Below are positions 727-21,134 of a stretch of DNA of 64,000 nucleotides, in pieces. Origin of the DNA: Escherichia phage VB-EcoM-WM; sequence record PQ014731.1; one strand, given 5' to 3'. The translations under genes were made by a program, and so were the position numbers. Position 1 is the first letter of the stretch, and each line of letters begins with the position of its first letter. The notes beneath the pieces were generated by a model. The model was not told where the DNA came from. It saw only the letters and a list, made by a program, of their open reading frames with translations, and did no database searches.

Positions 727-1395
727 ATGGCTGTAGCTTATCCTACAATACCAATTCCAGATCTTGAAGATGCAGAAACAGTCCTGAGTGATGACTTCTT
801 GGTTGTCAACCAGACTGATGGGACAAGAAAGGCTAAGATTGACGATGTTGTCAACGATCTTAGCATCACTAAGATAGTCTATTTCACAGAGGGTGGTTAT
901 CTTAAGAGCAAGAAGGACTTTGCTTATGATCCAGAAACTAAGCGCTACTACACGTGGAACGGGGATTATCCTAAAATAATCCTCCCAGACTCCACTGTAG
1001 AGGGTGCTGGGGGTGTGTCTGCAAATGCCTGGTCTGTTTTTGGTGAGCTTGCTGCAACTTCTTCTGGCAGAATAGTTGATTACGGATCTATCGGTGGTCA
1101 GCTTGATATGGATCTTGAAGTTGCGGATACCTTTAAGGTTCGACTAACTTCAAATACCACAATCTTTTTTGAAAATCAAACAGAAGGTCTTGAAGGGGTG
1201 GCGAGAACTATAACCGTATGCATTACTCAGACCTCTGGCGGCAACAAAGTCTATTGGCCAGGTAATGTTAAATGGTCCTACGGAAGAGATCCTATCCTAA
1301 CATTTACAGCTGGTGCAACAGACATTTTCAAGTTGGAAACCTACGACAACGGGTTAACTTGGTACGGGGCACTGATTATCGCAGGAGCTATCTAA
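727..1395 (+). CDS. tail fiber-related protein with shared N-terminal domain
   Basis: 222 aa; RBS aaggagaaatc before ATG; N-terminus (DLEDAETVLSDDFLVVNQTDGTRKAKIDDVV) is paralogous to the N-terminus of the 4031..7843 fiber. Confidence 0.5.
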   Translation: MAVAYPTIPIPDLEDAETVLSDDFLVVNQTDGTRKAKIDDVVNDLSITKIVYFTEGGYLKSKKDFAYDPETKRYYTWNGDYPKIILPDSTVEGAGGVSANAWSVFGELAATSSGRIVDYGSIGGQLDMDLEVADTFKVRLTSNTTIFFENQTEGLEGVARTITVCITQTSGGNKVYWPGNVKWSYGRDPILTFTAGATDIFKLETYDNGLTWYGALIIAGAI

Positions 1396-1396
1396 G

Positions 1397-3994
1397 ATGC
1401 GTATTCAACATAACATTGATAACGTATTTCAGATGATTGAGGGGCACAGGAAGTGCCTCGATAACAACACAGGCATTACCAATCTCCCTACGCAGAACAA
1501 GCTGGTAAACCCTGATGGTCTTATAGCTGCAGGGTGGGCAGGTAATAAGATAAATAATGATTGGGCAATGCATGAGTCCCAAGCTGTGTTGATTCTGGGA
1601 TACATTGAAGCATACAGGGCATCGAAAAGCGATTTCTATCTGGATAGGGCAAAAGATGCTTGGGAAGCTTACAATAGTCATCTTCTGGGTGCATATGCAG
1701 TAGAAAGTAAAATGCAAAGATTGTCCCACTACCCTCTATCTACAGATGGGGTTCCATCACATGGTGGGTTTAAAGATGTGGTGGTGTCTTTTACCAATGG
1801 TAGAGGAAAAATCCCAGCTGGATCTCCGACATGGGGAGAATACCTGGACAAGGCATTCCAAGCGTATAACGGTGTGTTAGGAAGAAACACGGTAGACTCC
1901 GATGTTTACGGTGGCACAGATGCTAACCCAGATTGGACAACATCCGGATTAAGTTGGTGGGTTGAGTGGTATATAGCATGGGATGGTAACCGCTATTGGG
2001 CTAACGGTAGCATAGCCGACAGTGGGCATACGTCTGTAGAGTTCGGCACAATCCAATTACAAGATAAGGGTGTTACAGGAAGCCACAAGGTAACCTATTG
2101 TGTAAGATTACCTCAAGAGCAGGGTGGATCGGTGATACCTGCAGGATCCCCTGTAATTGTGAATCCTATAAACGTGGTTGCAGACAATCAAGCCCCAGAG
2201 TTGGACGGGGAAGAAATGTGGTGTGACGCTTGTTATCAACTCTACACCTTGACAGGTGAGGAAAAGTATTACACCGCGTTTAAACAGTCTTACAACAAGT
2301 TGCTTAATTTCAGTGATATAAACGCCTACGACAAACTGTTTAGAAAGACCACGTTGATTAAGGCACCATTTACAGATGGTGCTTGTCTTGTTGCAGGAAC
2401 AGTTCCTGTCATGATCAGGGATAGTGACGGGTATATCAATTTTAGAATGAACGCACGCCAGCCTTGCGAAATAATTCAAAAAGGGACTACATACAAAATA
2501 GGCAGAGATGCTGAAATTGTTATGAATTTCGGAGGAGAAGGGGTTCTGTTCCAGCCACATTTCATCCTTAATGATGGCAACAATAACAAAAAACAGTACA
2601 GGATAGGTGTTCCTTTTGGAGGTGCAGAGGTAACAGAAATAGTTGCCAAGGTTACTGATTTCGTAGAGGTAGTTGGTAAAGACGGTAATCCGTACCTCTT
2701 ACCTAAAGAGGAAAACATTGCCGTGAGCGGTGGTGCCAGTGTTAGTATGCAGTACGATACCGACATTTACAACCACTCTGACAACTTCACCCGTTGTAAT
2801 ATAGCAAGGGGCAAAGTAACTTTCAATTTTGGAAGAGAGATTTCTTTAAACTCAGTAACTTATCGATCAGATGATGAGATGGTAAGGGTCAAATTTCTTG
2901 ACAAAGACAGGTGGTTATGGTATGCTGATCTATATGCCACTAATGGACAATGGATAACAGAAACTCTTACTCTAGGAGATTTCAAACTAGATCCGACACA
3001 ACCTCATCACACCGAAGAAGAGATTAAACCTTTCTTTGCTAATCCTAAGGGGCTCACCTCTGTAGATTTCAGCCTAAGCGACAGGCAGATAGGTAATGGC
3101 TTGTTTGACCTATATTGTGTCAACACACTGCCGCAATTTTATATTGCAGATAGAGATGCTTATCTAATCTGGTTTAGCGTATGGATGGCAAGCAAGACAG
3201 AATCAACCGCTAGGGTTGGCGATTGCTATGTCAGAAACTACAAGCAAGGCGCATACAGGCACACACCGGGTGTGTTCCCTGCCGGAAAGGTGATAGATAA
3301 GGAAAACTATCTCTTAGAGGAAAAGCCAAATTGGCCCTACCCTGGCATGCAATATCCAGCAGTCTACTGCATGGGTGCAGAAAACATAGATCGCCATAGA
3401 TTGTCAAATACAATAGGCTTTCTGTATGACGCTCAAGTCTGGTATAATAATACATTTAAGACAGAGGGTCCAGTTGCCTCGCGTTATGTATGGCAGAGAG
3501 GTAATGAAGGGCTGACTGGTTGGTGGGAGATGGTAGATAACTCTAAACTCCAGTCAAGATCTTTTGTTGCTGCGTGCCGCACAATATATGAGCTCAAGAA
3601 ACATAAAGAACCTGTTGATGAAAGACTATTCCTGTTCTGCCAGAAATGGGCATGGTTCCTCAACAGATTCCAGTCATCTCATTCAGGAAATCTGCCCACA
3701 GACTTTAACACCTCTGGGGGATATTCTTATCAAGACAGAGGAGACAGGATGTGGGTGGTAGGTGAATGGCTTGCAGGTTGCTGCTGGCTAGGTCTGTGCG
3801 GGTATTCAGAGACAATACCTCAAATAGATATTGTTGTGGAAGCCTGTGTGAAGCTACTGCAAAAGCACCACTTCATTAATGGGGATAATATTTTAAACGG
3901 CTGCTGGGCAGTTTCTGATCCGGTTGGCTATCACTCTGGCGAAATCCTTCGCGGTCTGGGCCTTTATGCTCAATACCGTGGATTGTACCTTTAA
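1397..3994 (+). CDS. large virion-associated protein, function unknown
   Basis: 865-aa ORF in the structural operon; no recognisable catalytic motif. Confidence 0.45.
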   Translation: MRIQHNIDNVFQMIEGHRKCLDNNTGITNLPTQNKLVNPDGLIAAGWAGNKINNDWAMHESQAVLILGYIEAYRASKSDFYLDRAKDAWEAYNSHLLGAYAVESKMQRLSHYPLSTDGVPSHGGFKDVVVSFTNGRGKIPAGSPTWGEYLDKAFQAYNGVLGRNTVDSDVYGGTDANPDWTTSGLSWWVEWYIAWDGNRYWANGSIADSGHTSVEFGTIQLQDKGVTGSHKVTYCVRLPQEQGGSVIPAGSPVIVNPINVVADNQAPELDGEEMWCDACYQLYTLTGEEKYYTAFKQSYNKLLNFSDINAYDKLFRKTTLIKAPFTDGACLVAGTVPVMIRDSDGYINFRMNARQPCEIIQKGTTYKIGRDAEIVMNFGGEGVLFQPHFILNDGNNNKKQYRIGVPFGGAEVTEIVAKVTDFVEVVGKDGNPYLLPKEENIAVSGGASVSMQYDTDIYNHSDNFTRCNIARGKVTFNFGREISLNSVTYRSDDEMVRVKFLDKDRWLWYADLYATNGQWITETLTLGDFKLDPTQPHHTEEEIKPFFANPKGLTSVDFSLSDRQIGNGLFDLYCVNTLPQFYIADRDAYLIWFSVWMASKTESTARVGDCYVRNYKQGAYRHTPGVFPAGKVIDKENYLLEEKPNWPYPGMQYPAVYCMGAENIDRHRLSNTIGFLYDAQVWYNNTFKTEGPVASRYVWQRGNEGLTGWWEMVDNSKLQSRSFVAACRTIYELKKHKEPVDERLFLFCQKWAWFLNRFQSSHSGNLPTDFNTSGGYSYQDRGDRMWVVGEWLAGCCWLGLCGYSETIPQIDIVVEACVKLLQKHHFINGDNILNGCWAVSDPVGYHSGEILRGLGLYAQYRGLYL

Positions 3995-3997
3995 CAT

Positions 3998-4020
3998 AGG
4001 GGGGCTGTTTGCCCCCTTTC
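3998..4020 (+). terminator. GC-rich stem-loop (weak terminator/attenuator)
   Basis: ggggggc-tgttt-gccccc followed by a short T run, directly after the stop at 3994. Confidence 0.4.
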
Positions 4021-20000: not shown

Positions 20001-20030
20001 ACAAAGGTCAGAACGGCAAGGATGCCGTTC

Positions 20031-20059
20031 TTGCATTTTGTTCTCTAAAGTGTTAAAAT
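20031..20059 (+). promoter_or_regulatory. sigma70-like promoter with TG-extended -10
   Basis: TTGCAT, 17 nt, TGtTAAAAT; preceded by hairpin gaacggc...gccgttc at 20011..20030. Confidence 0.45.
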
Positions 20060-20087
20060 AGTCCTTAAGGAATTTTCTCAGGAGAAC

Positions 20088-21134
20088 GTGATGACTAAAC
20101 CAGTTATCCCTCTTGATATTTGGGCCAATCAGGATGTTGTGCTTGAAAATACAGGAGAGTTGAACAAATCTCAACCGAACAAAGAAGAGAGATTGAAAGG
20201 TTGGGATATGACACAAAGGATAGCATGTGAAGTTGTTAACTTTGAACTCCACATGCTCTCTGCGTGGCTAAAGCATTTAACAGAAGATGTTGTCCCTGGA
20301 TGGGATAATAGATTCTTAAGGGTCACTAATAATCTGGCAGACGTTCCAGACAAAGCTGCTGCACGTCAAGTTCTCAATGTATACTCACCTGAAGAAATGG
20401 ATGACCTTTATGTTGACAAGGCTGGAGACACAATGATCCAGACTCAAACTTTAGGTCTTCAAAGGATCGAGTTTGCATCTGCGTCAACAGATAGTGCGGC
20501 GATATACACCACCATAACTCCAGACAAGACGATGATGGATTTCTGGATTATGGACAACATCGGCGGTGCTGACGGCACAGACCTTGATGATCCCTCTCAC
20601 CAAATAGACGGTTTCCGTTGGAGATTTCAACCTTCTGGTGGGCAGCCTGTGTTTTCGGCTATGAAGCTCAATGCTATAACTGCCAACCGTGCAAGACTGG
20701 CTATCCAAGGAAATCTTGAATGCAATGATGCAAAAAGCTCCTCTGCAAATGCTAATGCGGTAACGATACCTAGAGCCACTGTTAATGGACAACAATCCTG
20801 CGGCAGCGCTCAAATAGGTGGAAGAGTAGATTGTAACGATAAAACCGCCAGGGGTCAATATGCAACAGTTGGTGGAAGAAACGTGGTCCGCAGGGTAAAT
20901 GGTAGTAGCGCAGACAGTAGTGGTAACCTTACTATTCCTATGCCTAGCAGGGGTGTTGAAGATGTAAGGATAGCAAACCGTTTCAGAACCACCTACAGAG
21001 AATCAAGAGTATACCCTGGGCATGTAATGTGCTCCGGCAATTACGCCTATAAACACCCGTATCAGGGTGACTATTGGACTGGAGCTATTCAAAAATTTGT
21101 AAACGGTCAATGGATCACCATATCTTATGCTTAA
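20088..21134 (+). CDS. tail fiber protein (paralog 2)
   Basis: 348 aa; same architecture and C-terminal VNGQWITISYA as 18035..19075; start may be the ATG at 20091. Confidence 0.6.
   Translation: MMTKPVIPLDIWANQDVVLENTGELNKSQPNKEERLKGWDMTQRIACEVVNFELHMLSAWLKHLTEDVVPGWDNRFLRVTNNLADVPDKAAARQVLNVYSPEEMDDLYVDKAGDTMIQTQTLGLQRIEFASASTDSAAIYTTITPDKTMMDFWIMDNIGGADGTDLDDPSHQIDGFRWRFQPSGGQPVFSAMKLNAITANRARLAIQGNLECNDAKSSSANANAVTIPRATVNGQQSCGSAQIGGRVDCNDKTARGQYATVGGRNVVRRVNGSSADSSGNLTIPMPSRGVEDVRIANRFRTTYRESRVYPGHVMCSGNYAYKHPYQGDYWTGAIQKFVNGQWITISYA

Follow-up and report, generated by a model that had tools for sequence, protein, structure and literature searches.

Does the crowded fibre locus of Escherichia phage VB-EcoM-WM encode fibres between which the phage switches or a set that is carried all at once, and by what exchanges was it assembled? 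The window, the 64,000-nucleotide stretch of DNA analysed here, shares 98% DNA identity with Escherichia phage BP9, a Vequintavirus (rV5-like myophage), and about 94–95% with more than 100 other Vequintavirus records; 100 records at 90–98% identity each span at least 80% of 24 kb, and the locus is fully syntenic, gene for gene, with those of Bas59 and BP9. Identity and synteny place it in the Vequintavirus tail-fibre and baseplate locus, which carries, as here, two paralogous short tail fibres (STF1 and STF2) and one Mu U-like chaperone. The open reading frames were found at the coordinates given in the initial annotation, and protein roles were assigned from Pfam, PHROG and PDB matches. The fibre and baseplate genes all lie on one strand (+), as do the other genes and the promoter units described below, and the hub and spike genes of this contractile-tail phage lie just upstream of the window. 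We are highly confident that this region holds the baseplate and fibre genes of a Vequintavirus, transcribed late and specifying about nine fibre- or spike-like proteins that are expressed together as a fixed set. The finding is real and not new: the multi-fibre tail, paralogous short tail fibres and late promoters of rV5-like phages are already described, with paralogues, promoter motif and virion proteomics that included several fibres in the rV5 paper (2013), and a 'Swiss army knife' fibre set with variable alleles and homology to Mu S/U in the phi92 and BASEL papers.

Transcription units in the block are marked by a hairpin and a TGnTAAAATA motif at 7903, 13720 and 20051. Terminator-like hairpins at 7851–7870 and 13663–13684 are followed by the late promoter motif TGGTAAAATA at 7903–7912 and 13720–13729, respectively, and the region of the 7851–7870 hairpin is a direct repeat of that of the hairpin at 13666–13693. 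Upstream of STF2, a hairpin at 20010–20031 (−18.7 kcal/mol, z −4.8) precedes the motif TGTTAAAATA at 20051–20060, which bears out an earlier remark that the second short fibre has its own hairpin and promoter. The pattern TGNTAAAATA occurs six times, against 0.75 expected by chance; TGTTAAAATA/TGNTAAAATA corresponds to the published rV5 late motif TggTAaAAtA (rV5 paper, 2013), and the motif upstream of the wedge gene is invariant in three Vequintavirinae genera, including Seunavirus and Mydovirus. A terminator hairpin (28867–28888) lies 3′ of the gene for a 1878-aa protein. Because they share one strand and late promoters, the fibre genes are most likely co-expressed.

STF1 (346 aa, rV5 gp33; 18035–19075; PHROG 4465) is 100% identical to an FV3 protein. 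Its N-terminus matches the solved short tail fibre 9cuy (E = 2e-19) and its C-terminal tip matches Mu gpS (5yvq, E = 4e-6). Downstream lie the gene for a tail fibre assembly chaperone of the Mu U/lambda Tfa type (194 aa, rV5 gp32; 19090–19674; Pfam Caudo_TAP, PHROG 136) and that for a conserved small protein of 104 aa with a hydrophobic N-terminus (19686–20000; PHROG 5345), which is conserved next to the chaperone gene, downstream of it, in every Vequintavirinae genus that was compared. STF2 (rV5 gp30; 20091–21134), the faster-diverging paralogue, sits where other genera have a 157-aa ORF; its likely start is the ATG at 20091, giving 347 aa, and not 20088, and relatives are annotated likewise. 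The two fibres align from end to end at 43% identity (E = 1.3e-93, with composition filtering off), with block identities of 43% (residues 1–60), 32% (61–110), 60% (111–200), 34% (201–285) and 45% (286–346). The pair had been described as sharing N- and C-terminal blocks and differing centrally; in fact the middle (residues 111–200) is the best conserved part, similarity elsewhere is patchy, and the conserved terminal block comprises the last ~20 residues only (63 nt, 76% nucleotide identity). Shared ends with a different middle describe STF1 against phi92 gp147 instead. On sequence evidence, the pair is best read as an old full-length duplicate and not as a central-domain swap; STF2 may stem from a duplication inside the genus or may have been imported, the bootstrap value being 107/200.

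STF2 might be a superfluous or degenerating copy that serves no separate function, a reading prompted by its longer branch in the short-tail-fibre tree, an N-terminus more diverged than that of the orthologues in other genera and the lack of a chaperone gene of its own. It is nevertheless improbable, as the ORF is intact, a late promoter and a ribosome-binding site precede it, and its product is 96–99% identical to orthologues in two close relatives; among the matches listed, every Vequintavirus record has short tail fibre copies in two places (records of other genera in one), the BASEL work saw no allelic variation in it, and its rV5 counterpart, gp30, is part of the virion. STF2 also keeps the C-terminal tip that it has in common with STF1, which is compatible with use of a common chaperone. 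STF2 could have evolved a different baseplate docking end, two sets of short tail fibres being carried at once: residues 1–60 of STF2 are only 43% identical to STF1, and STF1 is 60–65% identical to its orthologues in other genera.

The initial annotation proposed a broad or switchable host range built by domain shuffling, of which the broad multi-fibre repertoire and the exchange of modules stood and the switching did not. Alternative expression of the short tail fibres or of other fibres, as from the Mu G segment (S/U versus S′/U′) or by a diversity-generating retroelement, would be in keeping with the separate hairpin and promoter of STF2 and with the likeness of the fibres to Mu S and of the chaperone to Mu U. 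It is very unlikely, given that both genes lie on the + strand without bracketing inverted repeats of at least 24 nt, that no invertase, reverse transcriptase or recombinase was found among the Pfam hits, and that the STF2 promoter motif is the late motif of the neighbouring units. Inverted repeats, an invertase and diversity-generating repeats were all sought in the fibre block and none was found; the flanking inverted repeats and invertase that mark a Mu G-type segment are thus both missing from it. Moreover, mass spectrometry of rV5 virions detected gp30, 32, 33, 37, 41, 42 and 43, so that both short tail fibres, and several fibres rather than one, are present in the particle of this close relative.

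Reuse of parts is seen at the upstream end of the block. The first gene (1–717; PHROG 4233 and 120, 'baseplate wedge subunit') encodes a 238-aa baseplate protein, a homologue of phi92 gp139, which acts as sheath initiator (PMC13450770); identity is 25% to gp139 and 71% to the Seunavirus orthologue. The 222-aa small fibre (rV5 gp43; 727–1395; PHROG 7760, tail fibre) comprises an N-terminal anchor (residues 1–105, with Pfam Tail_spike_N at 51–105) followed by a C-terminal knob like phi92 gp140. Matches to phi92 gp140 and to Phapecoctavirus proteins are confined to its C-terminal half, and each half occurs separately in other phages. The 1270-aa lateral fibre (rV5 gp41; 4031–7843) begins with the shared anchor, continues in a shaft and tip that vary, and carries an S74 intramolecular chaperone near its C-terminus; about one-third of Vequintavirus records have a different 3′ end of this gene. 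The chaperone, already recognized in the initial annotation, is predicted from a C-terminal Peptidase_S74 match (PF13884, residues 1149–1200, E = 9e-14) with the motif SDRDLK at residue 1149, which we take, from the K1F endosialidase, to represent the Ser...Lys dyad.

The N-terminal domains of the two fibres are paralogous, as had been noted: over about 100 aa (residues 8–105 of the 222-aa and 7–105 of the 1270-aa protein) they are 38% identical (70.9 bits, E = 2.7e-17), and both proteins independently match Pfam Tail_spike_N above the cut-off. Two Seunavirus proteins also have this conserved anchor, and in that genus it is fused to a colanidase. Chance or low complexity as the source of these similarities, for which only the shortness of the N-terminal block would speak, is of negligible probability in view of formal alignments with E values of 2.7e-17 and 1.3e-93 with filtering off, the separate Pfam hits and the retention of the anchor in Seunavirus. 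Between the two fibres lies the gene for an 865-aa tail protein (rV5 gp42; 1397–3994) with a predicted (α/α)6-barrel glycosidase-like fold, whose model, taken as a whole together with a β-rich insert at residues 329–622, matches glycosidase barrels only. A role for it as docking hub of the two anchor-bearing fibres gained no backing, as its predicted fold is enzyme-like and a T4 gp10-like domain was not detected; no protein of the block gave a Pfam or PDB match to T4 gp10-like docking or branching domains.

A tail-tip cassette, identified by PHROG and Pfam hits, occupies positions 7943–13656. It encodes a Dit-like protein (7943–8533), a tail protein (8535–9086), a DUF6950 protein (9086–9511) and a J-like protein of 1381 aa (rV5 gp37; 9511–13656), the gene for which contains five diverged repeats of ~44 aa at 11800–12462. 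The J-like protein matches lambda gpJ structures (E = 3e-28), and the cassette has the make-up of a lambda gpJ-type module, with Phage_Tail_Tip and Ig_J domains preceded by Dit-, L- and K-like genes in order. It is collinear with the tail-tip genes of the Seuratvirus VogelGryff (29, 38, 45 and 53% amino acid identity, with matching sizes), is absent from Seunavirus KE23 and phi92, and is bracketed by the duplicated terminator/late-promoter units. A siphovirus tail-tip module captured by a myovirus lineage would have entered by recombination at these units and would form an autonomous side appendage on the contractile-tail baseplate. This route of entry with the side appendage and the different baseplate docking end of STF2 are, as a pair, a tentative proposal that we consider possible but doubtful. 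In the literature searched, coverage of which was incomplete, no description of either was found, and a complete siphovirus-type tail-tip cassette within an rV5-like block may be undescribed.

Beyond the cassette, wedge proteins of 496 aa (Baseplate_J) and 228 aa, with gene starts at 13762 and 15264 (13762–15950), were identified by Pfam, PHROG and comparison with phi92 as orthologues of gp145 and gp146, the wedge proteins to which fibres attach in phi92 (phi92 cryo-EM paper). The adjoining 690-aa fibre (rV5 gp34; 15950–18022; Pfam NCTSP_N and TIM-barrel_NCTSP), with Calx-beta and TIM-barrel/deacetylase domains, is 42% identical to its orthologue phi92 gp142. Its NCTSP TIM-barrel (PF23845, E = 6e-80) and the GMSHY motif at residue 337, reported as the signature of N4 glycan receptor (NGR)-type fibres (bioRxiv 10.64898/2026.04.02.716166), make it a predicted NGR binder. 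Downstream of STF2 are an 88-aa membrane protein homologous to phi92 gp144 (21144–21410; PHROG 1322), a 581-aa fibre (rV5 gp28; 21420–23165; PHROG 4549 and 15437) that matches phi92 gp150 over residues 6–112 (44%) and gp151 over residues 486–581 (49%) in tblastn, and the 1878-aa Ig-like protein (rV5 gp27; 23214–28850; Pfam Big_2, PHROG 15684 and 215), the N-terminal 197 aa of which match a 595-aa Seunavirus tail protein. Pfam and PHROG matches confirm the J-like, 581-aa and Ig-like proteins of the initial annotation, and its minimum of six fibre-like proteins rises to at least nine fibre- or spike-like ones, since those of 865 aa and 690 aa have to be counted too.

From relatives and published work, the NGR-type deacetylase fibre (15950) is expected to bind or degrade surface glycans, as are the glycosidase-like protein and long fibres (1397, 4031, 21420, 23214 and the J-like protein at 9511), which would bring the particle to the cell surface. 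The chaperone (19090) probably folds the Mu S-like short tail fibres (18035 and 20091), whose irreversible binding to the LPS core would lead to sheath contraction. Host-range breadth would come from all fibres being carried at once and not from switching. The set probably arose in several ways: the ~100-aa anchor was reused with unlike distal domains (those of 727 and 4031; the colanidase in Seunavirus), the gene for the short tail fibre was duplicated long ago and acquired a terminator and a late promoter for the second copy, the complete siphovirus tail-tip cassette (7943–13656) was captured, and the distal parts of the largest fibres were replaced by other alleles. Both the present data and the literature support a multi-fibre repertoire that is linked to recognition of a broad range of hosts and that owes part of its make-up to module and domain exchange; for this exchange the support comes from comparison with Seunavirus and phi92.

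Biocontrol and phage-therapy cocktails make use of multi-fibre phages from this group because they recognize a broad range of hosts, and fibre-by-fibre roles, once known, would permit host-range engineering. On these roles the window adds nothing beyond the published rV5, phi92 and BASEL work. Its modest addition is comparative: the repertoire appears to have grown by self-contained units of terminator, late promoter and fibre genes, including a tail-tip module from another phage morphotype, which provides a concrete model of fibre-set expansion.

Among known systems, the branched tailspike complexes of CBA120 (TSP1–4) and G7C (gp63.1/gp66) resemble this block in the N-terminal domains of the 222-aa and 1270-aa proteins, which match Tail_spike_N and the corresponding regions of the TSP1, TSP3, TSP4 and gp63.1 structures. 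No partner with T4 gp10-like branching domains was found here among the Pfam and PDB matches, and the two proteins are only candidate members of a branched complex. As in Mu, a fibre with a gpS-like tip (5yvq) is followed by a Caudo_TAP chaperone gene, a homology noted by BASEL; in contrast to Mu, there is no invertible G segment, and the second fibre is a tandem paralogue with its own late promoter and without a second chaperone. The four collinear cassette genes (Dit, L-like, K/I-like and J) correspond to the tail-tip module of lambda-like, T1-like and Queuovirinae siphoviruses. However, the siphovirus module follows the tape measure gene, whereas the cassette lies between fibre and wedge genes in a contractile-tailed phage with its own hub and spike, and its J-like protein has a coiled-coil repeat insert of ~270 aa and a C-terminal extension.

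Phi92 (Justusliebigvirus) shares with this phage homologous wedge proteins and a small membrane protein, and its NGR deacetylase fibre gp142, glycosidase-like tail protein gp141, and Mu-like short tail fibre and chaperone gp147/gp148 have homologues here. Cryo-EM of phi92 revealed three co-expressed fibre types together on the particle, with the Mu-like gp147 fibre bound to wedge protein gp145 and fibre II not assigned to a gene. Where the present phage encodes two short tail fibres and a J-like cassette, phi92 has a single such fibre and lacks the cassette; it also has an endosialidase and a colanidase in place of the 1270-aa and 581-aa fibres, a different gene order, and a gp140 without the N-terminal anchor. 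The closest counterparts, rV5, BP9, FV3 and BASEL phages Bas55–59, have the same genes in the same order at 94–98% DNA identity, with the late promoter motif and the two paralogous short tail fibres in common, and differ in alleles only. The three largest fibre genes have variable alleles, as in rV5 and the BASEL Vequintavirus phages: the 1270-aa fibre gene is 80–90% identical in nucleotide sequence to that of most relatives, and the J-like protein is a long allele of 1381 aa, compared with 1279 aa in rV5 and Bas59 and a shorter allele in FFH2 and Murica.

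The fibre block matches those of rV5-like myophages. Megablast of window positions 1–24000 returned 127 phage records, 100 of which span 80% or more of the query with 90–98% identity, with Escherichia phage BP9 as the top match (98.0% identity over 100%); the annotated records among the matches are Vequintavirus (rV5-like myophages). The order and size of the genes agree one for one with BP9 and with Bas59 EduardKellenberger of the BASEL collection of E. coli phages. Upstream of the equivalent region, the records of these two phages contain the tape measure, tube initiator, hub and central spike genes, and the window therefore begins within the baseplate operon. 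Approximately 18–23 GenBank records (MG0656xx, host given as C. jejuni) carry the title 'Campylobacter phage' and match positions 1–24000 at about 94% identity or higher; their host labels appear doubtful. At 29000–36000, the GC skew goes negative and ORFs of at least 90 aa are mostly on the minus strand, indicating an oppositely oriented gene block after the fibre operon; relatives carry small hypothetical genes in the equivalent region.

ORFs, named here by their start coordinate, were assigned to rV5 gene products by size and synteny, and protein roles from Pfam, PHROGs and PDB matches. The equivalents, all on the plus strand, are gp43 (g727, 222 aa), gp42 (start at 1397, 865 aa), gp41 (g4031, 1270 aa), gp37 (g9511, J-like), gp36 (g13762, wedge), gp34 (g15950), gp33 (18035, short tail fibre STF1), gp32 (g19090, a Caudo_TAP chaperone by Pfam), gp30 (20091, the paralogous short tail fibre STF2), gp28 (g21420, the 581-aa fibre) and gp27 (g23214, the Ig-like 1878-aa protein). 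The J-like protein is a true gpJ relative, matching lambda J structures (E 3e-28), and g13762 and g15264 encode the two baseplate wedge proteins, which correspond to gp145 and gp146 of phi92. The protein encoded by g15950 (15950–18022, 690 aa) is a fibre with Calx-beta and TIM-barrel deacetylase domains, orthologous to phi92 gp142 (42% identity), with a GMSHY motif at residue 337. This motif is described as a conserved signature of N4 glycan receptor (NGR) binding in a 2026 preprint (bioRxiv 10.64898/2026.04.02.716166). The initial annotation, which left g15950 out of its fibre count, had proposed at least six fibre-like proteins; nine fibre or spike-like proteins are counted, including g727, g4031, g21420 and g23214.

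All-against-all BLASTP of 18 plus-strand proteins yielded two significant pairs. In the first, residues 8–105 of g727 align with residues 7–105 of g4031 (38% identity, 70.9 bits, E 2.7e-17). The two N termini separately match the Pfam family Tail_spike_N (PF18668), and g4031 carries a Peptidase_S74 domain at residues 1149–1200, with an SDRDLK motif at residue 1149; together these results confirm the proposed paralogy between the N termini of the 222-aa protein and the 1270-aa S74 fibre. The halves of g727 differ in distribution, phi92 gp140 and Phapecoctavirus proteins matching residues 109–222 only, and in Seunavirus the same N-terminal anchor is found on two proteins, a fibre of 224 aa and a colanidase of 712 aa. 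The relatedness of gp43 and gp41 at the N terminus is a small detail, of which no explicit statement was found in the available parts of the rV5, BASEL and phi92 literature compared.

The second pair comprises STF1 (18035–19075, 346 aa) and STF2 (20091–21134, 347 aa; called as an ORF from 20088, with the ATG at 20091 the likely start codon), which are 43% identical across their full length (E 1.3e-93). They had been described as sharing N- and C-terminal blocks around a different centre. The pair is indeed homologous end to end, but the centre is its best-conserved part: identity is 43% over residues 1–60, 32% over 61–110, 60% over 111–200, 34% over 201–285 and 45% over 286–346, and the conserved terminal block is limited to the last ~20 residues (63 nt, 76% identity). 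The pattern ascribed to the pair is instead that of STF1 and phi92 gp147, in which the N and C termini are conserved and the centre differs. The STF1 N terminus matches a solved short tail fibre (PDB entry 9cuy, E 2e-19) and its tip matches Mu gpS (5yvq). The other genera listed have a single short tail fibre, and the Seunavirus, Mydovirus and Avunavirus loci carry a 157-aa ORF in place of the hairpin, promoter and STF2 of Vequintavirus. STF2 may have arisen by duplication within the lineage or been imported (bootstrap 107/200). The first 60 residues of STF1 are 43% identical to those of STF2, versus 60–65% between STF1 and its orthologues in three other genera. STF2 is the faster-evolving copy, and the end by which it attaches to the baseplate may now use a different partner or site.

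The hairpin and promoter noted ahead of STF2 are real. The hairpin at 20010–20031 has a folding energy of −18.7 kcal/mol (z −4.8 versus shuffles) and is followed by TGTTAAAATA at 20051–20060. The window contains six copies of the motif TGNTAAAATA, versus 0.75 expected, and half of these copies (7903, 13720 and 20051) lie in the fibre block's only long gaps between genes, each after a hairpin. The motif equals the sequence TggTAaAAtA reported upstream of rV5 late genes (Kropinski et al., PMC3606486), and upstream of the wedge gene it is unchanged in Seunavirus and Mydovirus. Two further late-promoter-like copies (TGCTAAAATA) lie outside the block, at 46123–46132 and 58200–58209.

The fibre set had been interpreted as a broad or switchable host range built by domain shuffling. 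A switch is disfavoured: all genes of the block are on one strand, a repeat search found none of the fibre genes bracketed by inverted repeats, and the Pfam matches include neither an invertase nor a reverse transcriptase domain. The promoter preceding STF2 carries the late motif shared with the other units. Co-expression of the fibres fits these data; gp30, 32, 33, 37, 41, 42 and 43 were found together in rV5 virions by proteomics (PMC3606486), and cryo-EM of phi92 shows three fibre types on a single baseplate. The earlier observation is partly confirmed, and its interpretation is partly supported, in that broad host recognition and modularity stand and a switch does not.

Comparison with Seunavirus KE23, with phi92 and with four further Vequintavirinae loci supports modular evolution of the repertoire. 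The 581-aa fibre g21420 (21420–23165) is a chimera relative to phi92, with residues 6–112 resembling the colanidase gp150 (44%) and residues 486–581 resembling gp151 (49%). For g4031, nucleotide identity is just 80–90% in 101 of 122 Vequintavirus records, and in about one-third of Vequintavirus records similarity is lost after nucleotide 2942, a swap of the distal end. The J-like gene has at least three length alleles in Vequintavirus (approximately 1381, 1279 and 1199 aa), whose differences map to five diverged repeats of ~44 aa (STNKxTTDLLNxKTEALDxK...) at 11800–12462, in the coiled-coil part of the protein.

Much of this set is described in earlier reports. The rV5 paper gives gp30 and gp33 as paralogues with 42.3% identity and suggests recognition of two LPS chemotypes (PMC3606486). 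The BASEL study describes three sets of lateral fibres, strong allelic variation in the three largest fibre genes, two invariant short tail fibre paralogues with homology to Mu S/U, and receptor genetics, the receptor being later refined to the NGR glycan. In the 2026 phi92 structure, the Mu-like fibre is gp147, attached to the wedge gp145, and fibre II is given no gene assignment. As these papers cover the fibre set, the finding is real but already known.

The genes at 7943–13656 (Dit-like, tail protein, DUF6950 and J-like; 196, 183–188, 141–145 and 1381 aa) appear to be a tail-tip module of siphovirus origin that a myovirus captured as a separate transcription unit. No prior description of such a capture was found in the literature searched, coverage of which was incomplete, and novelty is thus unproven. 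The TTG codons at 8520 and 9074, called mechanically as ORF starts, probably lie too far upstream; the starts annotated in relatives are equivalent to 8535 or 8640, and to 9086. The cassette is flanked by two similar units of terminator hairpin and late promoter (7844–7942 and 13657–13761; CCCCGCTTCGGCGGGG ... TGGTAAAATA). Among the matches listed, the relatives of the Dit-like protein outside Vequintavirus are nearly all from phages with genomes of 42–60 kb, and include known siphoviruses such as PY54, Queuovirinae and Vibrio phages. The four genes are collinear with genes of the siphovirus VogelGryff (Seuratvirus; 194, 194, 144 and 879 aa), where they come after the tape measure gene, with amino acid identities of 29, 38, 45 and 53% in gene order. 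In Seunavirus KE23 and phi92, which differ in being without the cassette, the wedge gene comes after the third fibre slot.
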